DNA of 64,000 nucleotides from a virus. A program made the position numbers and the translations under genes. Of the stretch, positions 42,875-56,417 are shown one piece after another. The DNA lies in the UHGV virus genome UHGV-0293664. One strand, written 5' to 3'. The first letter of the stretch is position 1. Each line of letters opens with the position of its first letter. A model generated the notes under the pieces. It saw nothing but the letters and a program-made list of their open reading frames with translations. It had not been told where the DNA came from and did not search any database.

Positions 42875-43182
42875 TATTTTAAGTTATCAGGTTGCCAGAG
42901 ATCAGGAGGATTTCTAAAATGGATTTCCTCCTTTTGATATTTTACCTGCCAGGATATTTTAAAATCCTTAGAAAATCAGAAAATGGATCGAAAACTAAAA
43001 TGGATTTTTCAGGGCAGGCACGACGAGATGAACCACTCATCCTGTCGTTTGCACCATATTCCAGACCACCATTACAGATTTCCCGCACATGCTTACATCC
43101 TTCTACTGGAACTTCCTCCGCTTGCCCTTGACCTTTTATGGTAATAATCCAACCACTATCTTGAAGTTGCGATGCAGCTTTT

Positions 43183-43372
43183 CAGGTACTCGATCTGTTT
43201 TTCGTTTCAAAGATTGAATTTTCTGAAAATTTTTCTCGATAAATTTCTCAGTACTCGATCTGTTTTTCGTTTTCTGAATCGGATTTTCTGGAAATCGTTC
43301 CGGCTCTCGACCTGAAATTTTTGGGGACGAAATCGATTTTTCGTTTTCAGAAATGGATTTTTAAAATTTCTA
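43183..43372. repeat. degenerate tandem direct repeats (~65-bp unit, about 2.5 copies), iteron-like
   Basis: TACTCGATCTGTTTTTCGTTT at 43187 and 43252, partial third CGATTTTTCGTTTTC at 43333; GATTTTCTG/GAATTTTCTG sub-repeats. Confidence 0.6.
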
Positions 43373-43477
43373 TATGGGAATATTTTATGGGATACTGTTT
43401 TATAGGAAATTGTTACGGAGGGTAATTAGCGTGCTAATTAAATTTATGAAATGCGAGGAGTTCTCATTTAGAATTTT

Positions 43478-43700
43478 GAATGATAATCATTCTCGTTTGC
43501 AGAATAACGGGCACCCCCGGTGATTGTCTCCCGGCCCCTGTTGCCCCGGCTTGTTATTATAGTATCACACAGGACAAAGAAAGCAAGGACTTTTTGCATA
43601 AATTTTTAGACGATAATGATAATCGTTCTCATTTCATGCAGCGCCCATCCCCGGTGGTTGTCTCCCCCGTCACCGGTGCCTGCCGTCCTTTCGATATGTA
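43478..43700. repeat. tandem duplication (~120-bp unit) each carrying a GC-rich box ...CCGGTG(A/G)TTGTCTCCC...
   Basis: Both units start GATAATC.TTCTC.TTTC; boxes at 43510-43550 and 43641-43688. Confidence 0.6.
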
Positions 43701-43838
43701 TATTGTGCCACCTGGCGGGGCCGCTGTCAACACTTTTCAAAAAATTTTTCTAACCTGATGCGCTAACCGTTGCAACCTGGCGGGGCCAGCCTGGCAGGTC
43801 CGCGTTATAAAGTAAACAGCTACGGAAGAGGTACAAAA

Positions 43839-43988
43839 ATGAAAGGTAATGCTACTCGCCTGGAAAATGTAGTAATTGATGATACGGAAGCTATCGCCCT
43901 GGTCGAGAAGGTTGAAACGGAAGCGCGGGAACATAAAGAAGAGTACGAAAAAATGGTAGTTAACCTGGCGGGGGCGATTCTATCATAA
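43839..43988 (+). CDS. small hypothetical protein (49 aa)
   Basis: ATG 43839 after GGAAGAGG; the longer track ORF from 43770 starts inside repeats. Confidence 0.5.
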   Translation: MKGNATRLENVVIDDTEAIALVEKVETEAREHKEEYEKMVVNLAGAILS

Positions 43989-44088
43989 AAATAATTTAAA
44001 ATAATCGTTGACAGCTCGGACAGCTATTGTTATTCTTATCCTCGCAAGGTGAACAACACCACACCAATTAACAGAGAGGATAAAAATC

Positions 44089-44286
44089 ATGAACGCCTAC
44101 GGAATTAAAGTACGTCGCAACACCCGCCAGGTGGTCACCGATCAAATGGTTTGCCGGGTGGATGTAACCATCAACAACGGGCAAGGCCTTTATAAATTTC
44201 GTCGCGGTCATAGCTATACCCTGCAGCAGCTTAATCGTTGCGCCCTGACAAAAGGTCAGATCAACCACTGGTTTAATAAAAAATAA
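44089..44286 (+). CDS. early small protein
   Basis: 65 aa; SD GAGAGGA. Confidence 0.75.
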   Translation: MNAYGIKVRRNTRQVVTDQMVCRVDVTINNGQGLYKFRRGHSYTLQQLNRCALTKGQINHWFNKK

Positions 44287-44289
44287 ATA

Positions 44290-44318
44290 TTGACATGTAG
44301 TCTGAAACAAAATATACT
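44290..44318 (+). promoter_or_regulatory. sigma70-like promoter
   Basis: TTGACA-17 nt-TATACT. Confidence 0.65.
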
Positions 44319-44350
44319 GAAAGCACAAAAGACACTAAGAGGATAAAATC

Positions 44351-44749
44351 ATGAAAACCACAACCTTTAATTTTGACAATGCTAACTTCTCTTTTTCTGA
44401 TGTTAAAAGCTGCCGCCGTGATCGCGGATTCTACAAGGCCTATAATCTGGTTGTCTTGGACGATGATAATAATTTGCACGAAGTAGCGGAGATCCGGTAC
44501 TATGCCGCCGCCAGCGGTAACACTCACTACTGTGTATTTTGGATTCACGACAACAAGAACAATAAGTACGGTTATACTGGCGGCAAGGCGAGCGGTCACG
44601 GTTATGATAAAGCCAACGCTGCACTTGAAAGCGCATTAAGTGCCATGGGAATCACTGCCGACGGCTGGATCTATGAAGAAGAGTTTTTGGCGGCACTTGC
44701 TAACCGCTTGGGCTATAAAAAGCACATTGTAACGTGCGCCCACGAATAA
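44351..44749 (+). CDS. early protein
   Basis: 132 aa; SD AAGAGGA. Confidence 0.75.
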   Translation: MKTTTFNFDNANFSFSDVKSCRRDRGFYKAYNLVVLDDDNNLHEVAEIRYYAAASGNTHYCVFWIHDNKNNKYGYTGGKASGHGYDKANAALESALSAMGITADGWIYEEEFLAALANRLGYKKHIVTCAHE

Positions 44750-44838
44750 AAAAAAAAAATTATTGACACGCTGCAAAATTAAAGTAAACTAGACACAAAA
44801 GGCGGGAATATTTCCCGCCAACACAAAGGAAAAAGATC

Positions 44839-45243
44839 ATGAATAAGAACGTACGCCGCATCATGAACGAGTTGGCAAACGATGAAAAAATTATTGACAT
44901 GCATTTGATCAACATTTGCCGCCGTTGTGTAACATATAACAACCGCGCCGCAAAAGCGCGTGAGATGAACGCAAAAGGTACCTTAAAGCCATTCCAGGTG
45001 GTGGTAAAGGCCATTAAAGATGTAACTAATACGGCAAACCAGGTACAGGGGAACACCAACGAGAGTACCAATATTGATCCGTCTTACGTAATGAAACGGA
45101 TCCGGACTTGCAAGAATAAAGAGCAGGTGTATAACGTCATAGATTGGCTGGACTCCCTGGGTGATGTGGTTTACAATAGGTTTTCTGCAGCTATCGAGAT
45201 CCAGCTTGACAGATTAGACGGGAAAGTACTAAAAACTTATTGA
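44839..45243 (+). CDS. early protein
   Basis: 134 aa; SD AAAGGAAAAAGA; preceded by TTGACA box and GGCGGGAAnnTTCCCGCC leader hairpin. Confidence 0.75.
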   Translation: MNKNVRRIMNELANDEKIIDMHLINICRRCVTYNNRAAKAREMNAKGTLKPFQVVVKAIKDVTNTANQVQGNTNESTNIDPSYVMKRIRTCKNKEQVYNVIDWLDSLGDVVYNRFSAAIEIQLDRLDGKVLKTY

Positions 45244-45290
45244 GTTTATTTTTAGATGGCCTTGACTTCAGGGCCATCAATAAAGTAAAC
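45244..45290 (+). repeat. conserved post-stop hairpin element, copy 1
   Basis: TTTATTTTTAGATGGCCTTGACTTCAGGGCCATCAATAAAGTAAAC; 7-bp stem GATGGCC/GGCCATC. Confidence 0.6.
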
Positions 45291-45323
45291 TAACCACAAT
45301 TGAGCGGAAAAGGAGGCTTAAAG

Positions 45324-45443
45324 ATGAGCACTACACGCCAGCACACAAAGGTAACTATTATCGTTTGCATCATTGGTTACATCCTGGCGCAAATGTTGAT
45401 GAGTAGCGCCAACAGTTTTGCAAAATTTTTCTTAAATTTTTAA
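45324..45443 (+). CDS. possible small hydrophobic peptide (39 aa)
   Basis: ATG after AAGGAGG; MSTTRQHTKVTIIVCIIGYILAQ...; not in ORF track. Confidence 0.45.
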   Translation: MSTTRQHTKVTIIVCIIGYILAQMLMSSANSFAKFFLNF

Positions 45444-45471
45444 TTGACAAGCTAACCCAAATCGGTATACT
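45444..45471 (+). promoter_or_regulatory. sigma70-like promoter
   Basis: TTGACA-16 nt-TATACT. Confidence 0.65.
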
Positions 45472-45522
45472 TAAACACGTAAACGGGAAAACTTCCCAAA
45501 ACACACAAAAGGAGAAAACACC

Positions 45523-45864
45523 ATGACTACTATGACCGCCGAAGAAAAAGCCCTGCAGATCGCCGCTCTGAAAAAACAGATCGCAGACCTTGAGAATAAG
45601 ATCGATAACTTTGAAATCGACGAGGACAAGTACGACGAAAACTATGATGAATGGCTAGACGAGGTTTATGGCGAAATTATGATCGGAAACATTTCTTTTC
45701 TTCCGTCGCGTATCCTCAAGGAGTTAGATCCTATCGCTTACCGCTGCGGATTTAGCGACTACATCGACAGCCTGGATATTGAGGACGATGAAGAGTACCA
45801 AGAATTGCAGACAGAGATTGAAGAAGTGAAAGAAGAGCTTTCAAAGCTGGAAGAAAACGAGTAA
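45523..45864 (+). CDS. early acidic protein
   Basis: 113 aa; SD AAAGGAGAAAA. Confidence 0.75.
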   Translation: MTTMTAEEKALQIAALKKQIADLENKIDNFEIDEDKYDENYDEWLDEVYGEIMIGNISFLPSRILKELDPIAYRCGFSDYIDSLDIEDDEEYQELQTEIEEVKEELSKLEENE

Positions 45865-45912
45865 AATTTATTTTTAGATGGCCTTGACTCCAGGGCCATC
45901 AATAAAGTAAAC
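45865..45912 (+). repeat. conserved post-stop hairpin element, copy 2
   Basis: AAATTTATTTTTAGATGGCCTTGACTCCAGGGCCATCAATAAAGTAAAC. Confidence 0.6.
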
Positions 45913-45954
45913 TTTATACTGTTAACACTGAACTACTGCAAAGGAGTTAAAACC

Positions 45955-46200
45955 ATGGCAGCACTAATCACCAAGTATTATGCCCCTACTAACACCAAAA
46001 GCGCCCGTATCATGGTAAAAGGCTTCGGACGTAAAAAGGTTTACACCTGGGATTATGCCTTAGATACGGAAGACAACTACACCAACGCGATGACCGATTT
46101 TATTAATGAGCTGAACACGCGGATCTTGACAAATTATAAAATTACCGATATTGCCTATATAGGGGAAGGCGGGATCTGTTTTGTCGGTATCGTCAAATAA
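45955..46200 (+). CDS. early protein
   Basis: 81 aa; SD AAAGGAG. Confidence 0.75.
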   Translation: MAALITKYYAPTNTKSARIMVKGFGRKKVYTWDYALDTEDNYTNAMTDFINELNTRILTNYKITDIAYIGEGGICFVGIVK

Positions 46201-46275
46201 ACTATTTTTTCGGTGGTCCTGGCTGCAGGGCCATCTATAAAGATAATTTATTAACACCGTGAAAGGAGAAAGTAC

Positions 46276-46629
46276 ATGATCAGCGGGGCTAGTTTTATTA
46301 TTGGCGCTATTGCTACGGCTTTAATTGTAAACAAGATCCAATCTAAAAACGAAAAAGATAGCAACGCGCTCACAGAATACCCATTTTGGGTATTCAACGA
46401 CAACGAAGACTACATAATCAAGTACAAGAATGAGAAGGGCGACCAGGTAACACCGCGACCGATCCCGGCTTACAAAATGCAAGAAACACTATACCGCCTA
46501 AAGGCTGGAGGCGCAAAAATCGTAGACTTTTGGGGATATGATTGCAAGGATCAGGAGGTTATAAAACGGCGTATCCGGGCGATTCAGGCAAATATCGAGA
46601 TCAGTAAGGGGGGAAGTTATGAAAATTAA
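46276..46629 (+). CDS. early protein with N-terminal hydrophobic segment
   Basis: 117 aa; SD AAAGGAGAAAG. Confidence 0.75.
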   Translation: MISGASFIIGAIATALIVNKIQSKNEKDSNALTEYPFWVFNDNEDYIIKYKNEKGDQVTPRPIPAYKMQETLYRLKAGGAKIVDFWGYDCKDQEVIKRRIRAIQANIEISKGGSYEN

Positions 46630-46816
46630 TTTCGAAAAAATTGTAAAGCGCCCCCACGATTCCGAAGAGCTGCCGGAACGCCGCCAGCGCAACAATAAAC
46701 TGAATAAACCGAAAAGATTTGGGAAGATCTGGCGGAATCATTATGATCGTAAACTGCCTGGCCTACTCTTGGAACGTGAACGACAGGCGGAACGATACCG
46801 CCACAAAGGCAAATAA
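46619..46816 (+). CDS. small basic protein
   Basis: 65 aa; SD AAGGGGGGAAG; overlaps upstream stop. Confidence 0.6.
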   Translation: MKINFEKIVKRPHDSEELPERRQRNNKLNKPKRFGKIWRNHYDRKLPGLLLERERQAERYRHKGK

Positions 46817-46824
46817 CAACCAAC

Positions 46825-46853
46825 GCCCCGCCATTGTGCGGGGCTTTTTATTT
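46825..46853 (+). terminator. intrinsic terminator
   Basis: GCCCCGC-CATTGT-GCGGGGC then TTTTTATTT. Confidence 0.8.
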
Positions 46854-46997
46854 CTATCCTACGAATAGCGCCCCTGGTTGGTCCCACAAACGCCACAAAA
46901 GCCCCTACCTATGCAATCCCCTTTCTTAGTCTGAAAACATCGCCCAGGGCCGTTTTATGGTGTTAAAAATAGCATTGACAGTGATTTTATTTAAAGC

Positions 46998-47026
46998 TTG
47001 ACACCTTGGAATAGCCCAGATATACT
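46998..47026 (+). promoter_or_regulatory. sigma70-like promoter
   Basis: TTGACA-17 nt-TATACT. Confidence 0.65.
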
Positions 47027-47061
47027 AACCACATCAAAGCAAGAAGGAAGGAGTAAACGCC

Positions 47062-47322
47062 ATGCGTAAATTAAAAAATTTTGATAAAGTCGATATTGTC
47101 CTGAATAATTTTTACTACTGCAATAATAAAGCCGTTTGGTGGCGTGATAGTTCCACCGATAAAGTTAAAGCGCGCTTTCTCCAGGGGCACTGGCAAGGCC
47201 GCCCAGTGATTAAGATCCTGGGGCAATCGGTAGCGTTTAAAAATTGCCGCCGTGTTGATGACGTTGAAGAGATTCTAAACATTTTACGCCACAATAATTT
47301 AAAAAATAGTGTTGACAAGTAA
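47062..47322 (+). CDS. early protein
   Basis: 86 aa; SD GAAGGAAGGAG. Confidence 0.75.
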   Translation: MRKLKNFDKVDIVLNNFYYCNNKAVWWRDSSTDKVKARFLQGHWQGRPVIKILGQSVAFKNCRRVDDVEEILNILRHNNLKNSVDK

Positions 47323-47339
47323 ATCTTGATAAGTATACT
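47312..47339 (+). promoter_or_regulatory. sigma70-like promoter
   Basis: TTGACA-16 nt-TATACT; followed by GGCGGGAAAACTTCCCGCC leader hairpin. Confidence 0.65.
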
Positions 47340-47396
47340 TAAACACACAGGCGGGAAAACTTCCCGCCACTAACAAAGAAAATAGGAGAAAATATC

Positions 47397-48020
47397 ATGA
47401 CCACCGTTAACATTACCGCAGGTTACAATTTATCTTTCGACGTGCTGACCGACGAACAAAAAGAAAAAGCTATTGAAATGGTCCGCGAAAGAGAAGAACA
47501 CAGCGGAGAGGATTTTTTCGCAGAAAGTGTAATTGAATATTATAAAGAACAAGTTTTTCCAGAGTACGGCCTTGAAGATACCGAAGTACATTGGTCCGGA
47601 TTTTGGTGTCAAGGCGATGGCGCGTCAATTAGTGCTGAAAATGTAGACTTAGAAAAATTCTTGCGTAAAGTAAAGGCCCTGACCAAGTTCCGATCAATTC
47701 GTCACTTGTTCGGCACAATGCACGATGGCGAGTTATCAGCCAGTATTGAACGCGACAAGTACAGCCATTACAGCCATGAAAACACTGTAAACGGATACAT
47801 TGATACCACCTGGATAAATCTGACCGCCAAACAAGAAAACAAAGTGGAAGACCTGGAAGAGCTGATCACCGAGACGGCACGGGAGCTATCCCGTAAGGTT
47901 TACGTAGACCTGGAGGAGGCCTATCTAGAACAGTTCACTACCGAAAACCTGATCGATCTTATTAAGGCTAATGATTGGCGGTTTGATGTAGATGAACATG
48001 GCGAGATGACTTTTTCATAA
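47397..48020 (+). CDS. early acidic protein
   Basis: 207 aa; SD AAATAGGAGAAAA. Confidence 0.8.
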   Translation: MTTVNITAGYNLSFDVLTDEQKEKAIEMVREREEHSGEDFFAESVIEYYKEQVFPEYGLEDTEVHWSGFWCQGDGASISAENVDLEKFLRKVKALTKFRSIRHLFGTMHDGELSASIERDKYSHYSHENTVNGYIDTTWINLTAKQENKVEDLEELITETARELSRKVYVDLEEAYLEQFTTENLIDLIKANDWRFDVDEHGEMTFS

Positions 48021-48109
48021 ATAAAGTGTTGCAATAACCTAAAAACCTGCTATATTAAAACTCAAGGGGCAAGACGTTTGCCCCCACACAAAACAAAGAG
48101 GAAAACATC

Positions 48110-48490
48110 ATGAAAAACACTACTAAAGCTATTGACACCGTTATGTTTAACCTGGTTACCTTTCGCGAGGATATGAAAGATCTTCCGCGTGAAACAGTGT
48201 GCGACCATATCGAAAACTATCGCAAACTAATCAAAAAGTTGCCTTTAAAACGTGATCAGTATGCGGCTAACGCCATGCTTAATGCCATGATCAAAAAGAT
48301 GATCCAGTGTGATTTAACTCTGGCCTATGATTATGCAGGTGGTCGTTTTGCAGTATACAATCAGCCCGTGCCTGGTATGAGCACCACAGAAGAATTGCAC
48401 GCGTTAAATCTAAAACAAGACGTGTGGGATAGCATGCCTCGCGTGGTGGTATGGGTAGAAAGCGGGAAGATTTACGGCGATAATTTTTAA
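48110..48490 (+). CDS. early protein
   Basis: 126 aa; SD AAAGAGGAAAA. Confidence 0.8.
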   Translation: MKNTTKAIDTVMFNLVTFREDMKDLPRETVCDHIENYRKLIKKLPLKRDQYAANAMLNAMIKKMIQCDLTLAYDYAGGRFAVYNQPVPGMSTTEELHALNLKQDVWDSMPRVVVWVESGKIYGDNF

Positions 48491-48500
48491 TCAGATAACA

Positions 48501-48532
48501 GGCGGCGGCATATTTGCCGCCGCCTTATTGTT
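48501..48532 (+). terminator. intrinsic terminator
   Basis: GGCGGCGGC-ATATTT-GCCGCCGCC then TTATTGTT. Confidence 0.75.
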
Positions 48533-48560
48533 AAACAGAACTGCAAAAGAGGTACATAGA

Positions 48561-48932
48561 ATGGAATTTATTATTTTGGCTGTATTGGTTGCCTTGTTTA
48601 ACGCCTGGATTGCTGGCAAGATGGGCAGATCCGCCTTTTTATGGTTTATTATATCTATTTTCCTGGGGGTGGTTGCAACTATTGTATTGGTTATCCTTGC
48701 AATTGTTGACAAGGGGAATAATAGAAAGGGTAAAGTATTTTCAGACCTGTACGACGCTCAAACGTTTGTCAACGCATATTATAGTGATCTTCCAGTCTCC
48801 CTACGCTGCAGCCTGGCACAACAAGTTTTCGATGAGGCTAAAACCAGAGATCAAGCCCATGAGATATGTTTAACTGAGGCGGATCGCCTATTTGAGAGGA
48901 ATAGAAAATATGTGGGCCAACCGTTTAAATAA
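48561..48932 (+). CDS. membrane protein
   Basis: ATG 48561 after AAAGAGG; two hydrophobic helices. Confidence 0.7.
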   Translation: MEFIILAVLVALFNAWIAGKMGRSAFLWFIISIFLGVVATIVLVILAIVDKGNNRKGKVFSDLYDAQTFVNAYYSDLPVSLRCSLAQQVFDEAKTRDQAHEICLTEADRLFERNRKYVGQPFK

Positions 48933-49155
48933 TGCCACGTTAATTAATCCCTTTAGTGAAGATTTGAAGCCAGCCGCCTGGCGTGATGGATTCAATACCG
49001 AACGCTTTATTTTCAGGCCTGATCTTGAGGAATTTTATAACAATGGATCGAACAACGACAGAGATAATTTTTCTTGTGATGTGCGTGGTGATGGTACTCC
49101 TGGGGGCCATTGTAAACCACGTCACTACTACCAGGGGGAAAGGGGGAGACGATGA
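48910..49155 (+). CDS. hypothetical protein
   Basis: ATG 48910 after GAGAGG; overlaps upstream gene end. Confidence 0.5.
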   Translation: MWANRLNNATLINPFSEDLKPAAWRDGFNTERFIFRPDLEEFYNNGSNNDRDNFSCDVRGDGTPGGHCKPRHYYQGERGRR

Positions 49156-49271
49156 CACCCAAGGATAAGCCACGCACCAATAAGGCGCGCCGTGTTATGG
49201 TGTGGCTGGAGATCATCGCCCTTGAAATATTGCTAGGCGTAGGGATGTACTTTATCGCTGTAAGTAACTAA
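49152..49271 (+). CDS. possible small membrane peptide (39 aa)
   Basis: ATG after GGGGGAGA; MTPKDKPRTNKARRVMVWLEIIALEILLGVGMYFIAV; terminator follows. Confidence 0.45.
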   Translation: MTPKDKPRTNKARRVMVWLEIIALEILLGVGMYFIAVSN

Positions 49272-49275
49272 GAAC

Positions 49276-49303
49276 GGCCCCCCGATCATGGGGGCCTATC
49301 TTT
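49276..49303 (+). terminator. intrinsic terminator-like hairpin
   Basis: GGCCCCC-GATCAT-GGGGGCC then TATCTTT. Confidence 0.55.
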
Positions 49304-49326
49304 AAAAAAATTTTTCTTCCGGGGTG

Positions 49327-49354
49327 TTGCAATCCGGTCCGGAATGTGGATAAT
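49327..49354 (+). promoter_or_regulatory. sigma70-like promoter
   Basis: TTGCAA-16 nt-GATAAT. Confidence 0.55.
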
Positions 49355-49409
49355 AACAATCAACGGGGAGCTAATCCCACCACCACAAAAACCAGAAAGG
49401 AGAAACAAA

Positions 49410-49610
49410 ATGAGCAACAATATCCGCGTTATTAACTTCAAAAAAGAAGAAAAAATTGCCGTGCTGATTGACGGTCAAGAAATCTTCAAGGGCGACTATG
49501 AAGATCATCAAACGGCGATTAGTATCACCCGCGTGATTGGTTACCATAATTTCTACCCCCAAGGTGCTGAGGCAGCAGTTAAACGAATCAAAGAGATTGT
49601 AGGCCTGTAA
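49410..49610 (+). CDS. early small protein
   Basis: ATG 49410 after AAAGGAGAAAC; 66 aa. Confidence 0.7.
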   Translation: MSNNIRVINFKKEEKIAVLIDGQEIFKGDYEDHQTAISITRVIGYHNFYPQGAEAAVKRIKEIVGL

Positions 49611-49658
49611 AATTTATTTTTAGATGGCCTTGACTCCGGGGGCCATCAATAAAGTAAA
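49611..49658 (+). repeat. conserved post-stop hairpin element, copy 3
   Basis: AAATTTATTTTTAGATGGCCTTGACTCCGGGGGCCATCAATAAAGTAAAT. Confidence 0.6.
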
Positions 49659-49702
49659 TTTAAACCCTGTTAAAATAATCAGTGCAAAAAGGAGTAATGA
49701 TC

Positions 49703-50002
49703 ATGTTTATACCCGCCAATAATCTTTATTTCTTTGATGGTCAAATCGTAGACGGCGTGGAAGTTGAGATCACCGGGTGCCCTGGTGGTCAGGCTATGAC
49801 TTTTCGGAATAATGCTTTTGATGATTCTCATATCGTTATGAGAATGGAAGTTACGAAGCTGGACGACAAGAAAACACTTATTGACTATTCTGTGAAAGAT
49901 CATCCAGACTACCGCATGATCCATGGCGATTTGTGCAGTGTTGACCGTGACAAGGTGGGCGGCATTGTGATCGCTATTGTGAACGATGTTTTCTCAAACT
50001 AA
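49703..50002 (+). CDS. early protein
   Basis: ATG 49703 after AAAGGAG; 99 aa. Confidence 0.7.
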   Translation: MFIPANNLYFFDGQIVDGVEVEITGCPGGQAMTFRNNAFDDSHIVMRMEVTKLDDKKTLIDYSVKDHPDYRMIHGDLCSVDRDKVGGIVIAIVNDVFSN

Positions 50003-50019
50003 TTTCAGCAGGTGATTTT

Positions 50020-50370
50020 ATGAAAGTCAAACTATATTACCTTAATGAGCTTAACCCCCTTGCCCAGGTCCGCGCCCTGGCTAATACCTTGATTTGTGAG
50101 AAATCTGCATATTGTGTTGAGCTTAACGCCATGCGTGAACGTCTCAAAGGGGGTTACTTCGACATCCATGCTGCAATCAACGGCCTGAATATGGAATTTA
50201 TACGCTTACGTAACAGCCGCCGGAATCTGGCAAGAATGGAACAAGATCCGGCCCACCTTCGTAAGCTGGTTATTGAAAATCATCTGATGTTTAATGCCGA
50301 GGGTGATTATTACCATTTTCACCGCAAACGCTGGTACCGTGGCGGCAATACAGGCAAGAATGCAAAATAA
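50020..50370 (+). CDS. early protein
   Basis: 116-aa ORF; weak SD. Confidence 0.65.
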   Translation: MKVKLYYLNELNPLAQVRALANTLICEKSAYCVELNAMRERLKGGYFDIHAAINGLNMEFIRLRNSRRNLARMEQDPAHLRKLVIENHLMFNAEGDYYHFHRKRWYRGGNTGKNAK

Positions 50371-50571
50371 GGCCCCAGGCAGGGCCTGCAGCGATATAAT
50401 CACATAAAGGCTATGCGGTTGCATGGCCTTTATTATTTTAGCGTTACAGCGACCCCCAAGGCGCTTAAAAAAATTTTAAAGAAGTACTTGCATCAAGCCC
50501 TACAATATGGATAATAGGACGTGTCGGGGGGCGGCCCCCAATCATTAACCGGATAGATAGGAGTTAAAACC

Positions 50572-50856
50572 ATGGCTATTGTTACCGCTGGCGATGTAGT
50601 AGAAATGGAAGCAAAATACTTAAAAGCGGGTATGCATATCCTACGCAACGATCTTGAACTGGTCCTGACAATGGTTGACTATAACCCAGGGCAAGATTAT
50701 CCAAGTGTTGACTACTTTTTTAGGTATGTTGATGAAGAATTAAAAGAGGATGAGGCTTATCAGGGCGAATTCTGTAATTTCTTTTGCTCTGATGAGGTTG
50801 TAAAAGTTATCTATCAACCTGGCGTACCTTTCCCGTTGCACGCTATCAATAAATAA
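50572..50856 (+). CDS. early protein
   Basis: 94 aa; SD ATAGGAG; TTGCAT-17 nt-ATAATA box upstream. Confidence 0.75.
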   Translation: MAIVTAGDVVEMEAKYLKAGMHILRNDLELVLTMVDYNPGQDYPSVDYFFRYVDEELKEDEAYQGEFCNFFCSDEVVKVIYQPGVPFPLHAINK

Positions 50857-50911
50857 ACCTGGCGGGGCCGAAAAGGCCCCCAATTATGAAAATAAAGAGA
50901 GGTAAATCATC

Positions 50912-51145
50912 ATGATGGAACAAATTAAACGCGCTGAGGCTATTAATGGCAATGTGATCTACTTTGTCAGCAAAAACGAAAAAGGCGTACCATATGCGGC
51001 GGTAATAGTACAGCCTGACGGTGATTATTGGTTTACTGTGTACGGCGCTTATTCTTTCGGGCGTCCGGTGCATGATAGAATTTTGAAAGTAGCGAACCCC
51101 ACCGGGAAGAATATCACGGCAGAAAAATTTTTTGAAAATAATTGA
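50912..51145 (+). CDS. early protein
   Basis: 77 aa; SD AGAGAGG. Confidence 0.75.
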   Translation: MMEQIKRAEAINGNVIYFVSKNEKGVPYAAVIVQPDGDYWFTVYGAYSFGRPVHDRILKVANPTGKNITAEKFFENN

Positions 51146-51169
51146 CAACGTTTTAAATTAGTTTAAGAT
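51142..51169 (+). promoter_or_regulatory. sigma70-like promoter
   Basis: TTGACA-16 nt-TAAGAT then conserved GTATCACGTAGGG start region. Confidence 0.6.
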
Positions 51170-51226
51170 GTATCACGTAGGGGAGACAAGCGCCCTATTA
51201 AACGCAACAGGAAGAGGATAAACACC

Positions 51227-51466
51227 ATGAAAAGCAATAAAGGTTATAACGGTTACAAAAACAAAACTCATTGGAATGTAAGCCTTTGGATTAATAACGA
51301 TGAGTCATTGTACCGGTTGGCCCAAGGCTTTATCAACGCTAATGCTAATCGTAATGATGCGGCGCGGGATATGATGCTTTTTCTGGAGCTAACCGGACAA
51401 GATAAGACCCCGGACGGCTTCAAGTACAGCACTACGGCGATCCGTGCCGCGATGGTTGGAATGTGA
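51227..51466 (+). CDS. early protein
   Basis: 79 aa; SD GAAGAGGA. Confidence 0.75.
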   Translation: MKSNKGYNGYKNKTHWNVSLWINNDESLYRLAQGFINANANRNDAARDMMLFLELTGQDKTPDGFKYSTTAIRAAMVGM

Positions 51467-51475
51467 TAAAATAGC

Positions 51476-51503
51476 TTGACACTGTTTTTTATTCTGGTAT
51501 AGT
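51476..51503 (+). promoter_or_regulatory. sigma70-like promoter
   Basis: TTGACA-16 nt-TATAGT. Confidence 0.6.
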
Positions 51504-51645
51504 TTATCACATAGGACGGCACGACAGAGTACTACGGATTCGAGGGTGTCCGGTGCGGTGAACTTGCTCGCGACCTTAAGGAAGATCCAGACCTGGAAGA
51601 TCTGCCCATCACCGTAAACGGGAAAACTTACGTAAACCGTTAACC

Positions 51646-51780
51646 ATGAGAAAGATAATCATCACCTTGGGGATTGTGGCGGGATCGCTGGCGCTCTTTC
51701 CCCTTATGGTTAGATATGTGCTGATCAGTATTGTCCTGATAGTTAGTGATTTATTGGAAACGGTTGGCACCTTGTTTTAA
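51646..51780 (+). CDS. possible small membrane peptide (44 aa)
   Basis: MRKIIITLGIVAGSLALFPLMVRYVLISIVLIV...; no clear SD; not in ORF track. Confidence 0.3.
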   Translation: MRKIIITLGIVAGSLALFPLMVRYVLISIVLIVSDLLETVGTLF

Positions 51781-51792
51781 AGAGCGGTAAAA

Positions 51793-51984
51793 ATGAATAT
51801 CGAACAAGTTAGAAAGGTATTGGCGGTACTGCGTTATCATAATCATAGAAAGGTCATAGACGATCCTGATTATGTCGATTCAAGCCTGGAAGGGGATACA
51901 CTACAAGCCATAAGCAACATGCAAGAATTGCTAAAGCGCATGACAGAGAAAAACAGATCTGATTATATAGGTGACGAGATCTAA
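51793..51984 (+). CDS. early small protein
   Basis: 63-aa ORF; weak SD. Confidence 0.6.
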   Translation: MNIEQVRKVLAVLRYHNHRKVIDDPDYVDSSLEGDTLQAISNMQELLKRMTEKNRSDYIGDEI

Positions 51985-51990
51985 AATAGC

Positions 51991-52018
51991 TTGCACAATG
52001 TATCTGATAGTGTAAGAT
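51991..52018 (+). promoter_or_regulatory. sigma70-like promoter
   Basis: TTGCAC-16 nt-TAAGAT then GTATCACGTAGGG as at 51170. Confidence 0.6.
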
Positions 52019-52068
52019 GTATCACGTAGGGCGGCAATAGTGCCGCTCACAACTGGAAGGAAAACACC

Positions 52069-52272
52069 ATGACTACAGCTAACCGCCTGATCGCCGTCCT
52101 GAACAAAGCAAAGGCTAACCGCCTGGATGTTCAAATCAAAGAGCAAGCAAATGGCGAGATCCTTGCTACGGTGTCCGATGGCGGTTATGTATCGGAATCA
52201 TTTTTATCAGGGAGCTTAGATCATCTTGTTTGGAAATTAGAAATTATCGTGGAGGATATGCAGATCATCTAA
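52069..52272 (+). CDS. early small protein
   Basis: 67 aa; SD GGAAGGAAAA; terminator-like hairpin follows. Confidence 0.75.
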   Translation: MTTANRLIAVLNKAKANRLDVQIKEQANGEILATVSDGGYVSESFLSGSLDHLVWKLEIIVEDMQII

Positions 52273-52326
52273 TCTTTACAAAACAGGGCTTGTTTTTATC
52301 CTGTTTTTTGTTATACTTGTTTCACG

Positions 52327-52372
52327 GCAGGCACCTGGCGACGGGGGGAGACAATCACCGTGGGTGCCTGTC
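52327..52372 (-). repeat. inverted copy of the GC-rich box found at 43510 and 43641
   Basis: GGGGGGAGACAATCACCGTGGG is the reverse complement of CCACGGTGATTGTCTCCCC-type box; flanked by CAGGCACC/GGTGCCTG. Confidence 0.6.
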
Positions 52373-52476
52373 ATGTAAGAACTATAAAAACCGTTGACAT
52401 CTGCCAGGGGGTGGGGTAACATTTATCTTGAAGGGGCAAAAGTGCCCACACAACAACCAGAAGAGAGGAAAACATT

Positions 52477-52749
52477 ATGTCAAGCTGGATTAATCAAGAA
52501 GTCGAATCACGTTTTAATGCTATTTGGGATCTCATCGAAAAAGAGGACGGAACATCAAGCCCCTACCTCAACAATTTGGAATTCCATTTTGTGGAAGCGA
52601 TGAACGCAGAACATGATCACGAAGGTGGTGCGGATGAATTCGCTAAAGGATATGGCTTCAACAATGCCAACGAAATGATCGAGGCGGTTGTACTCCAGGC
52701 TGAGGAAGATTATCAATTAAAAACGCTTGAATTCTGCCGCCGTAAGTAA
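52477..52749 (+). CDS. early protein
   Basis: 90 aa; SD AGAGAGGAAAA. Confidence 0.75.
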   Translation: MSSWINQEVESRFNAIWDLIEKEDGTSSPYLNNLEFHFVEAMNAEHDHEGGADEFAKGYGFNNANEMIEAVVLQAEEDYQLKTLEFCRRK

Positions 52750-53685: not shown

Positions 53686-56201
53686 CTGCTCTTCTCCTAC
53701 CATAAACGGCCCTACCTGGCAAGTGGAATAATTGACTAGCCATCAATCCCACACACTGTACAAATATACATGGAAAATAACTATTGCATAATTTTTCATT
53801 GTGTGGTAGCAAGTCCATTTTTACCCGTTTTCTCTCCCAAAATTGCACGTAATGCCGCTATTGCACAAATTTTAACCTGATGCACATCTCCAATATCTTG
53901 TCAACAACTAAAAATCTTTATAAGTCATACACTTACACAGCATCGAAAGCGTGTTCTACGCGAAAAATCGAGTATAACTATAGCCGCCAGATCTCAGAAT
54001 TCACGTACGCACACCATTCTATAGTCCGCTAAGTATTTATTCCAACCACAGAATAACGGAATAGTCAATACCTGTACAAAATAATTATTCGTATAAACTG
54101 CATAACATAAACCTGTCCAGGTGTCAACATTTTTCGTAAACAGTCTGAAATTGTCACGATAGGTTACTATAATCAGAGAAATCTTTAGTCGTCTAATGTT
54201 TACTGCACATAACTATACTGACTGGAATCATTAGATGACTAATAGAAAGATAAGAAATAGTTAACAATGTAATTGTTTTACCTGTAACAATAAGGCAACT
54301 ATGCAAACGAATGTCATGGCGCGACGGAGTCGCGACATAATATAAAAGCAGTAACCATCACCCCCGTGATAGTTTGTCTGCAAACTATTAATCAGATCAT
54401 AGTTGCCTTGTATTTAGTTAATCATGACATAACAAGCAAGGCAACTATAGATCTGCTAATAGTTGCCCTGCTTTTATATTATGTCATATATTATTAACCT
54501 GTTAATTGTCAGCTTGTTGGATGTTAGCTTGTCAATTATTAACTTGCTAATTGTTTTCATGCAAACGAATGTCATGGCTGATTATTTCTATGTAAATGGT
54601 TTGTTCGTAAACAGTTTATTCGGGAACAGTTTATTCGGGAACAGTGAGGCATGCAATAGTAACAATTGTTATTGTATCCAGTGTGTTGAGTATGCCCAGT
54701 GTGTCCAGTATGTCAGACAAGTTTTTCCTCTCTTTGTCAAGTGCCGCATTAAAAATTTACAAACTGGTATGGTAGCATTTTTGCGGCCCTGTTTACATTC
54801 AGCAGTGTATGTATAACCCTTGTTGTGTGGGCGTTTAGACGTCTAGACGGTTGGAAGTCTACAGGTCAATATCTAATCTATTGGCTGCTAACTATATCCC
54901 ACACAAATAGTAAGAAATATGATTGTTATATGCGTAAACTGTAACTCATGTTATCAATCCCTGTATGTATCGCCAGTGGTTCGCATAATGGGTATTATGT
55001 TAAATTGCCAGTAATGATAACGATTCTCACAATGATAGGTATTCTCATTCATCCACACAAAATAGTTTGCAAATGTTGTGCCACTGTGTGAACGGCCTGG
55101 CCTATTAATTTCTCTCACTGCCTCGATATTTGAGAATTGTTATAAGAATGAGAAGTATTCCCATTCCGTCCGCCTGGCAGCGCTCCTGTAGGTCCTGCAA
55201 GGACTCTAGCTGAAAGCTAGACCCTTCGGGCCTCCCTGTAGGTCAGGTCAAAATCGTGGTAGAATTGGGCCTGTTCAGATATTTCTGGCTGACTCTTCAG
55301 GTCTGTGTGGGAAAAGCCAACCTCTCCGGCGGGGCAGGGGGTCATGACGGTAAAATTGCAGGTCAATTAAAAAATTTACGTGGTGTATGAAGCGCTCTTC
55401 AGGTAAGGCAGGTATTATGGGATGAAACCCTCTTCAGGCAATGATATTTGTGGGTGTGATATTTGCTGGAAAGCCAGATATGACGGGACTCCCGGCGGGG
55501 CAGGGGTAGTACAGACAGGGGAAATATGGGGGATGTGGTTGGGGAAATTGATCAGGCAGGAAGAGTATGGAATATGTTACAGATATGTTAAATATGAAGG
55601 TAGGATATTTGTAGGATTTGTGTGTAAAATCAAAGACTTAAGTGGTGTTGTGGTATTTTCTATAAATAATTCAAGTTTAATAGGCAATATTTGTCTCTAT
55701 CCGCTTTGTGTGGTAAACAGATTCAGATGAGATTGGTTTACAGGTGTATACATAATATACAAATTAAAGATACAAGAAACCCCCCTCCCCCTTCGGCTAC
55801 CATTCACCTTTTCCTCTGACTGGTACTTAAACACTTATTCAGACTCTTCAGGTTATCACCCATATATCATATGGCAGTGACTGGTGTCCTCCGGCCCCTC
55901 TTTCGTCACCCGTCCGCTTCGCCATGCTAATGCCATAGCCAAATGTTCGGTTGTTCACCCTGTTCACTCAGGTGTATCTCCATACCCCTTCAAACCGAAG
56001 AGAACAGAAAACCCGAATTACTCGGTAAAAGAAAAGAGAAGAACTTAATTTTATCAGGATAGGCAAGAATGTCAAGGCATGACTGCTCACTAAACAAGCA
56101 AACAGTCATGTGTGGGAGGTAAGTGATTGTGGTGGTAGGAAATTTAGTTGAAAGATGTGTTATAGGTGCTCCAGCACTTTATCCAGGCAGCTAATTGTGT
56201 G
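53686..56201. other. 2.5-kb non-coding, AT-rich, repeat- and palindrome-rich region at convergence of plus and minus transcription
   Basis: No convincing ORF; direct repeats, large inverted repeats and tetraloop hairpins (see findings). Confidence 0.7.
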
Positions 56202-56417
56202 TCAGTCCAGCGGTTCATCCTCTACTTCACTGAAATCAATGTTCATGGTCTCCTCCCAACCATCGATCTCAGCACAAGAGTGGAGTTCTTTAGGGTTTAC
56301 CCCCAAAGCCTCAGCAACAGAGTCTATATTTAACACCTCTGGCAGGTATGATTCATCGAATTCAAGGTAAATCAGGCCACGAGTGTTGTCAGCTCCACCA
56401 AATATCTCTATCTTCAT
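56202..56417 (-). CDS. small acidic protein
   Basis: 71 aa; GAGGAG SD 6 nt upstream. Confidence 0.75.
   Translation of the reverse strand: MKIEIFGGADNTRGLIYLEFDESYLPEVLNIDSVAEALGVNPKELHSCAEIDGWEETMNIDFSEVEDEPLD

Follow-up and report, generated by a model that had tools for sequence, protein, structure and literature searches.

A conserved GC-rich noncoding box beside predicted promoter elements at both borders of the early gene block of an rV5-like phage

In the 64,000-nucleotide stretch of viral DNA analysed here (UHGV virus genome UHGV-0293664, hereafter the window) a GC-rich box of about 45 bp is present three times, twice in tandem near 43.5 kb and once inverted near 52.3 kb. As judged from comparison of sequences, the box is a real, conserved and previously undescribed noncoding element, which is located at both borders of the early gene block and is tied to predicted promoter elements. 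The reading we favour, to which we assign a probability of about 0.4, is that the box is a promoter-proximal cis-regulatory element in a conserved intergenic control module of the rV5-like phages and their relatives. Sigma-70 promoters and terminators are given in the published descriptions of the rV5 and CB7 genomes, neither of which mentions the box.

The window belongs to Vequintavirus, the rV5-like myophages: its positions 43000-46000 are 91-94% identical to more than 100 Vequintavirus genomes (rV5, Gotham, FFH2 and PDX among them). Its + strand, which corresponds to the rV5 minus strand, carries genes from ~18 to 53.7 kb, and the part between 43.8 and 53.7 kb, the early block, is made up of small open reading frames (ORFs) with numerous sigma-70 promoters. 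The three copies of the box are the following.

43510-43550 (+): box copy 1, 'box-1 type' (GCACCCCCGGTGATTGTCTCCCGGCCCCTGTTGCCCCGG), with an exact core at 43518-43532
43641-43688 (+): box copy 2, full type, with the 3' end GGTGCCTGCC and an exact core at 43652-43666, alignable with copy 3
52327-52372 (-): box copy 3, the inverted one, of full type and enclosed by the CAGGCACC/GGTGCCTG stem, recognized by its core, fold and homologues

The 15-nt core, CGGTGRTTGTCTCCC, has exactly three matches in the window, at 43518-43532 (+), 43652-43666 (+) and 52346-52360 (-), against a chance expectation of 0.12, and three matches were found in 0 of 100 shuffles; a chance or low-complexity origin of the box was thereby ruled out. 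The first-pass annotation of this DNA, made from the sequence alone, had described two tandem copies and an inverted one, and all three stood up to this count, with no further core elsewhere in the window. The stem which it had seen around the inverted copy was found as well, CAGGCACC (52329-52336) pairing with GGTGCCTG (52364-52371). Its tandem duplication of ~120 bp had to be corrected, the measured period being 134-136 bp. The alignment of the three copies bore out a common box in part: the whole consensus is shared by copies 2 and 3, whereas copy 1 has only the 5' half (through CTCCC), and its 3' half (GGCCCCTGTTGCCCCGG) defines a separate, itself conserved 'box-1 type'. About 45 nt of copy 1 are identical in the divergent relative L058, where the flanks cannot be aligned, and copy 1 is also kept in phages CR3, KB57 and GAP31.

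The conservation of the box extends well beyond the genus. A 59-nt query taken from copy 3 matched 150 phage records and a 231-nt query, the homologous module of phage PD06, matched 265. The copy-3 module (~100 nt) occurs in Vequintavirus, in Certrevirus (CR3, DU_PP_I, POP18), in Seunavirus (EspYZU12, SEW6S) and the unclassified A73, in Justusliebigvirus (PD06, AV123; phi92-like) and Phapecoctavirus (ESCO13, ZCKP1; phAPEC8-like), and in one Pseudomonas phage, PsgM04F. It was intergenic in 14 of the 14 loci fetched, with the C-rich strand antisense to the flanking genes in all of them, as at copy 3 itself. The 43.5-kb locus, comprising box 1 and the palindromes described below, is conserved in CR3, DU_PP_I and POP18, and is also kept in Mydovirus (KB57, K45PH128C2), Seunavirus GAP31, Erwinia phage Hena1 and Serratia phage Kashira; in the three annotated loci fetched (CR3, KB57, GAP31) it lies in a noncoding gap of 0.8-1 kb after a gene of ~275 amino acids. 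The copy number is three in Vequintavirus and one or two in the other phages. The two loci are mutually inverted and 8-10.6 kb apart in CR3 (80.2 and 90.9 kb), DU_PP_I (74.4 and 82.4 kb) and POP18 (112.3 and 102.7 kb), which is the arrangement of the window, where they are 8.8 kb apart. The earlier proposal of inverted sites around most of the early block is supported: the copies are non-random, functional-looking and bracket the block, and the bracket is kept in other genera.

Outside the phages the box was searched for in several collections. In 5,426 complete E. coli genomes no match was obtained, and an origin as a host homologue or a mimic of a chromosomal sequence was rejected on this ground. 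The only full-length plasmid match in PLSDB was CP057073.1, a 137,565-bp E. coli 'plasmid' with 96% identity over the full length, which seems to be a mislabelled Vequintavirus genome; three further plasmid records match a 28-nt stretch only. A 15-mer scan of IMG/VR returned mostly chance matches within a prophage coding sequence. The pattern scans of metagenome and genome collections gave one real relative (L213) among the matches listed, and they do not establish absence from bacterial genomes because the pattern was too permissive; a stricter form of it is CCGGTGNTTGTCTCCCN{6,12}AGGTGCC. Among the GenBank records, 17-22 with MG0656xx accessions are titled 'Campylobacter phage' (host C. jejuni) and are 92-93% identical to E. 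coli rV5-like phages, which looks like mislabelling or contamination.

Promoter elements of sigma-70 type can be predicted next to each copy, together with a terminator at the 52.3-kb locus.

52281-52310 (+): terminator hairpin of ORF 52069-52272 (AACAGG...CCTGTT with a T-run), read from the sequence
52309-52317 (+): predicted extended -10 TGT-TATACT with the invariant promoter positions; predicted start A52324, 3 nt before the box
52381-52386 (-): -10-like TATAGT facing the box from the right, without a -35 and not conserved outside Vequintavirus
52394-52422 (+): predicted canonical early promoter TTGACA-17-TAACAT for ORF 52477-52749
43702-43730 (-): predicted sigma-70 promoter TTGACA-17-CACAAT with an extended TG and an A/T-rich upstream element (scan tool, 10/12 plus TG)
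43556-43561 (-): -10 hexamer TATAAT, read from the sequence, followed after 23 nt by the reverse-complemented core of box 1
43476-43505 (+): weak promoter candidate TTGAAT-18-CAGAAT, read from the sequence (8/12, below the threshold of the scan tool)

Nineteen copy-3-type modules from at least six lineages were aligned. Their order on the G-rich (gene) strand is a terminator hairpin, a T-run, TGnTATnCT, ~7 nt, an invariant A and the box. T-12, A-11, T-10, T-7 and the A of the predicted +1 are invariant in 19/19 sequences, and 17 of these have the G-14 of the extended TG. In the window the sequence at 52309-52317 would be a sigma-70 extended -10 element by its TGn and TAnnnT, their spacing and their conservation in relatives. 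The terminator before it, annotated at the same place in Murica, has its T-run on the gene strand in every genus; its loop of 12 nt makes the scan tool overlook it. At the other border, transcription from the promoter at 43702-43730 would go leftward through the reverse complement of box 2, and this promoter is kept in rV5 and Gotham; in L128 the -10 is CATAAT although the adjoining bases differ. For the hexamer at 43556-43561 the orthologous full promoters found by the scan tool are TTGACA-16-TATTAT in L058 (11/12 plus TG) and TTGCAA-17-TATATT in CR3 and KB57. The weak candidate at 43476-43505 has a palindrome filling its spacer and a predicted start at the left edge of box 1; its equivalent in L058 is TTTAAA-18-TATATT (scan tool), and the -10 ends in two invariant bases.

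The G-rich strand of the box (GGGAGACAATCACCG...) starts 23-35 nt downstream of a sigma-70 -10 hexamer in every copy, the gap between the -10 and the reverse-complemented core being 23, 26, 26, 26, 28 and 35 nt in the six cases measured, and the box would therefore form the first ~20-50 nt of a transcript. Since box 1 is faced by promoters on both sides, it would represent the ~40-bp overlap of face-to-face promoters.

The 43.5-kb locus holds further elements, and each unit of the tandem repeat carries one 19-bp palindrome (43479-43497 and 43615-43633) that was absent from the first-pass annotation.

43186-43374 (+): three iteron-like repeats (GTACTCGATCTGTTTTTCGTTT...; repeat family D3), spaced 65 and 74 bp, left of the operators
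43450-43468: operator-like palindrome, degenerate (AATGCGAGGAGTTCTCATT), at most 4 mismatches from AATGAGAAT-N-ATTCTCATT
43479-43497: operator-like palindrome AATGATAATCATTCTCGTT, 13 nt upstream of box 1, invariant in six lineages
43615-43633: operator-like palindrome upstream of box 2
43480-43758 (+): spurious ORF (rV5 ORF198, Gotham F10B_0202) built on the repeats

The palindromes form a family with the consensus AATGAGAAT-N-ATTCTCATT, present in 2-4 tandem copies in CR3, KB57 and GAP31 and clearest in CR3, which has four. The window has six members, at 43450-43468, 43479-43497, 43615-43633, 55013-55031, 55031-55049 and 55147-55165. The segment 43612-43630, overlapping the third of these, matches the Fur-box consensus GATAATGATAATCATTATC at 17/19 positions, against 0.03 such matches expected; the other copies fit less well. 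The iteron-like motif GTACTCGATCTGTTTTTCGTTT recurs in the equivalent noncoding region of CR3 as an exact pattern match, and in KB57 similar repeats were recognized by eye, outside the pattern scan with 3 mismatches. These repeats may be an origin or another protein-binding array.

That the ORF at 43480-43758 is probably not a gene had been supposed from its repeats, and the comparison shows it to be noncoding: it has a stop at codon 8 in L128 and L213, it has no Shine-Dalgarno sequence, its C-terminus shifts with 1-nt indels (92, 95 or 109 amino acids), and substitutions are spread evenly over the three codon positions (6, 8 and 8). A small ORF starting after the Shine-Dalgarno-like GGGAGA was also considered and rejected, since it is not conserved. 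In OY978796.1 (L386, 1204-1276) a tRNA-Met, together with a neighbouring tRNA-Ile, is annotated over the palindrome/box-1 region; this annotation is probably misplaced, because ARAGORN finds no tRNA there.

In the favoured reading the box would control transcription at both borders of the early block, jointly with the operator palindromes. It might do so as the binding site of a regulator or, alternatively, as a leader or overlap segment setting the balance of opposing promoters. Transcription would proceed away from the early block, to the left from 43.7 and 43.55 kb and to the right from 52.32 kb. The module is kept while the flanking genes change between phages, and the box crosses genera, whereas two other early intergenic repeats, taken as control modules (45225-45300 and 45440-45525), have matches confined to Vequintavirus records. 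An operator role had been among the earlier suggestions; a regulatory role would fit the fixed position of the box by promoter elements and operator palindromes. Several points weigh against this reading. Every promoter at the box loci is predicted from its match to the consensus, and the box is not oriented in the same way towards its flanking genes at the two loci. The facing promoter at 43.5 kb is weak in the window (8/12) and has no conserved counterpart at the copy-3-type loci. The conserved TGnTATnCT could be constrained in part as the tail of the upstream terminator. Finally, some of the similarity across subfamilies at 52.3 kb reflects the recent exchange of a larger segment (84-89% identity with ZCKP1 over ~850 nt) and not only purifying selection on the box.

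An invertible or excisable segment, with the boxes as recombination sites, had also been proposed, and this is now largely refuted and hardly credible. The loci do present the inverted repeat of a Gin/Hin/Cin-type segment, + at 43.5 kb and - at 52.3 kb, the copies lying ~8.7 kb apart and being inverted in other genera too, but no orientation variant was seen: at least 112 Vequintavirus records are collinear in one piece across 43400-43840, the top matches are collinear over 43000-46000, and 3-kb and 2-kb queries across both loci gave same-strand pieces only, including those at 52.3 kb. Nor was a recombinase detected in the nine window ORFs around both loci, which had no significant Pfam domain (one match below the cut-off). 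The genomes are mosaic around copy 3: its upstream gene comes from at least three unrelated families in Vequintavirus alone, each common to another genus, the downstream gene also varies, and at least five unrelated gene families lie on each side of the module. Since the flanks are mosaic and the module is constant, the copy-3 module is a junction for cassette exchange and not an inversion site; the role of a cis-leader for one particular downstream gene was excluded, because the downstream genes differ. A terminal-repeat boundary is unlikely as well, because the relatives CB7, phiTE and PVP-SE1 are reported to be circularly permuted. It could be argued that the module, like the PeSL motifs of T4-like phages, persists only as a homology patch for such swaps, with a box lacking specific function, and the variety of genes on each side, the mere 24 of 210 records that cover at least 80% of the 2 kb around copy 3, and the ~220 nt at ~95% identity between unrelated flanks in PsgM04F and PD06 would all suit this idea. 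We nevertheless consider it quite improbable, as other early intergenic modules are not shared beyond the genus, box 1 with its operator is identical over ~45 nt in L058 amid unalignable flanks at a positionally conserved locus, and the invariant positions coincide with functional promoter positions.

Structured RNA elements, also suggested in the first-pass annotation, are a weak candidate: copy 3 alone has a fold that notably surpasses shuffled sequences (z -2.5 and -2.8 for the two strands; ~-1.4 to -1.7 for copy 2 and ~0 for copy 1), and neither convincing compensatory changes nor an Rfam match came to light. RNAalifold on the 19 copy-3-type modules gave -3.7 kcal/mol for the C-rich and -6.9 kcal/mol for the G-rich strand, with no double-sided compensatory change on either strand. 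The column-pair scan yielded only a 4-bp hairpin on the G-rich strand, mostly with a GNRA loop, kept in 18-19/19 sequences and partly via U-G pairs (C-A mismatches on the other strand). An inner stem GGUGN/NYRCC, promising in 8 sequences, was discarded as broken in ~8/19. In Rfam 15 the whole window had no match at the gathering score, and nothing relevant appeared at an E-value <=10 on both loci or <=1 on CR3, KB57 and GAP31; neither the window nor 9 related loci gave a tRNA with ARAGORN, so that identity with a known RNA family or a tRNA was rejected. With no covarying helix and weak folds, it is probably the sequence and not the fold that is conserved, which would favour a protein or a complementary nucleic acid as the recognizing partner over a folded RNA.

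A small RNA from the C-rich strand (~95 nt, from 52374 to ~52280 on the - strand) would consist of a hairpin at its 5' end, a C-rich loop resembling an anti-Shine-Dalgarno sequence (CUCCCCCC; in phi92-like phages GAUUACCUCC), a linker that is rich in A and of ARN type, and the shared hairpin, which would serve as its terminator. The fold of copy 3 has an energy of -23.1 kcal/mol (z -2.8), the G-U wobbles of the GGUGN/NYRCC stem fit the C-rich strand by eye, the linker AAG-NAU-AAC-AAA-AAA is conserved, and in the window, rV5, PD06 and EspYZU12 the hairpin continues into a U-run. Such an RNA is still clearly unlikely: it has no consistent promoter, as the window's TATAGT is without a -35 and the aligned hexamers are CTGAAT in CR3 (no A-11) and TATAGC in PD06 (no T-7); CR3-like phages and Murica have no U-run on the C-rich strand; and the broken inner stem, the -3.7 kcal/mol without a compensatory pair and the lack of an Rfam match count against it. 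The conservation of sequence without covariation would suit a pure DNA operator, in which a phage or host protein binds the ~45-bp box independently of the adjacent -10s, for example a repressor by which the early block is silenced or insulated at both borders. Two direct repeats CACC(T/G)G ~24 bp apart on the G-rich strand, the co-occurrence with the palindromic operator family and an orientation not fixed with respect to genes are in line with this possibility, which we still regard as somewhat unlikely: no candidate regulator was found, ten neighbouring ORFs being without a significant Pfam domain (one match below the cut-off), and the box keeps a constrained distance from the upstream -10 but a variable one, ~34 to ~87 bp, from the next downstream promoter. 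As for replication, outward G-rich transcripts might form stable R-loops and prime or activate an origin beside the iteron arrays, by analogy with ColE1 RNA II, the T4 and T7 origin promoters and mitochondrial CSBII. In all copies a G-run on the non-template strand comes after a predicted promoter (a G6 run, and in box 1 four G-tracts), the iteron-like repeats adjoin the 43.5-kb locus and their motif recurs in CR3, no gene in the window would be expressed from the leftward transcript, and tandem leftward promoters exist in KB57 and CR3. Against these stand the failure to identify an initiator gene, a DnaA box or an unwinding element, the genes rather than iterons directly downstream of copy 3, and the GC skew, which tracks gene orientation in the window and in the rV5 paper and is uninformative on the origin; we give this possibility little credence. 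A more elaborate version, very improbable in our estimation, would make the two inverted boxes the start zones of outward G-rich primer or activator transcripts of a bipartite origin bracketing the early block and gated by 7-1-7 operators of Fur-family type. If it were true, early control or the start of replication in a subfamily of virulent phages would answer to a host repressor that senses metal, or to a mimic of this repressor made by the phage.

The cis-regulatory reading of the box has partial parallels in known systems. In the temperate phages 186 and P2 face-to-face promoters act as switches (pR/pL, Pe/Pc), with operators between or over the promoters. Convergent sigma-70 promoters are predicted here as well, with ~40-50 bp between their starts, transcripts that overlap, and palindromic operators covering one of the two promoters; this likeness is based on the L058 scan and, for the window, on inspection by eye plus a minus-strand promoter scan. 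This phage is virulent, however, and lacks both a repressor and an integrase module; conservation is highest in the overlap segment itself, and interference would here be putative. In lambda nutL/nutR and HK022 putL/putR the elements lie just downstream of outward promoters, and here also two inverted copies of a short element would each stand downstream of a promoter, with transcripts running outward in opposite directions; the box differs in having no boxA/boxB-like motif or conserved two-stem put-like fold, and the leftward transcript would be antisense to neighbouring genes. The operator consensus of the Fur family is the 7-1-7 TGATAAT-N-ATTATCA. The palindromes beside the box are likewise 7-1-7 repeats, TGAGAAT-N-ATTCTCA, and the site with 17/19 agreement, 43612-43630, overlaps one of them, but the family consensus deviates at one position per half-site, and the resemblance concerns a predicted site in the neighbouring palindrome and not the GC box.

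Composite terminator/promoter motifs called PeSL are sites of cassette exchange in T4-like phages (Arbiol 2010, PMC2839356; Comeau 2014, PMC4122927). The 52.3-kb module is similarly a small conserved terminator and promoter cassette among small early ORFs, at an exchange junction of unrelated genes, where the hairpin and T-run of 52281-52310 are followed by the predicted extended -10 and then by TTGACA-17-TAACAT. In contrast to PeSL, the box module has 1-3 copies per genome instead of dozens, contains a ~45-bp GC-rich box without PeSL counterpart, and crosses subfamilies, while the abundant promoter/stem-loop repeats of this phage (D1, D7) are restricted to the genus. In the Certrevirus phiTE an antitoxin-mimic RNA, pseudo-ToxI, has been described at the locus phiTE_202/203 (Blower 2012, PMC3475682). 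Like the box, it is a short noncoding intergenic repeat of an rV5-like phage with partial tandem duplication. The heptamer GGTGATT of the box presumably occurs in the ToxI repeat too. The locus is another one, though, the box is GC-rich and not AU-rich, and its period is 134 nt against 36; as no Rfam family, ToxI included, was matched at an E-value <=10, identity with such a type III antitoxin mimic was rejected.

Some observations were made on the surroundings of the loci. Another noncoding block of ~100 nt (...CTACCGGCGATCCACCTTCC...GTTAGCCCCGCCTTTTCGCCGTGGGGTGGCG...) is common to Certrevirus, Mydovirus and Seunavirus (L384 1640-1760, L383 1640-1740, L385 1660-1760); it lies 3' of a second leftward promoter, has no Rfam match and might correspond distantly to box 2. 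Neither the window nor CR3 has a homologue of the leftward gene found in Mydovirus and Seunavirus (KB57_208, GAP31_044). The protein of ORF 52069-52272 (67 amino acids) is 98.5% (PD06) and 100% (ZCKP1) identical to that of the gene at the same place, while rV5 and Murica have unrelated genes there, which indicates a recent cassette exchange across subfamilies. PsgM04F (OR584014, L125 1375-1594) and PD06 (L124) have unlike genes around the module stretch which they share, and this stretch includes an E. coli-type promoter, TTGACA-17-TATTAT. Within the early block a 60-nt promoter module restricted to Vequintavirus and resembling the PeSL motif occurs four times (45232-45291, 45854-45913, 46189-46248, 49600-49659), and its inverted repeat GATGGCC...GGCCATC overlaps the -35 TTGACT. 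The motif ACCTGGCGGGGCC, also present four times (43709, 43774, 43962, 50856), stands each time directly 3' of a -10-like sequence and could fold into a short hairpin, CUGGC-GGG-GCCAG, which may be the stem of a 5' leader. Beyond the early block, ~53700-56250 is a repeat-rich stretch of 2.6 kb between convergent gene blocks, without a convincing ORF and marked as a 'non-coding' box in the rV5 paper; GC drops to 0.36 at 54-55 kb within it, and it holds the three 19-bp palindromes at 55013, 55031 and 55147.

The rV5-, phi92- and phAPEC8-like phages are among the E. coli phages isolated most often and are candidates for therapy. The box would be a familiar kind of object, a cis-regulatory module predicted from sequence. 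The spurious ORF 43480-43758 can be removed from annotations, and the conserved noncoding box offers concrete targets for mutation in the timing of early expression and possibly in the start site of replication.

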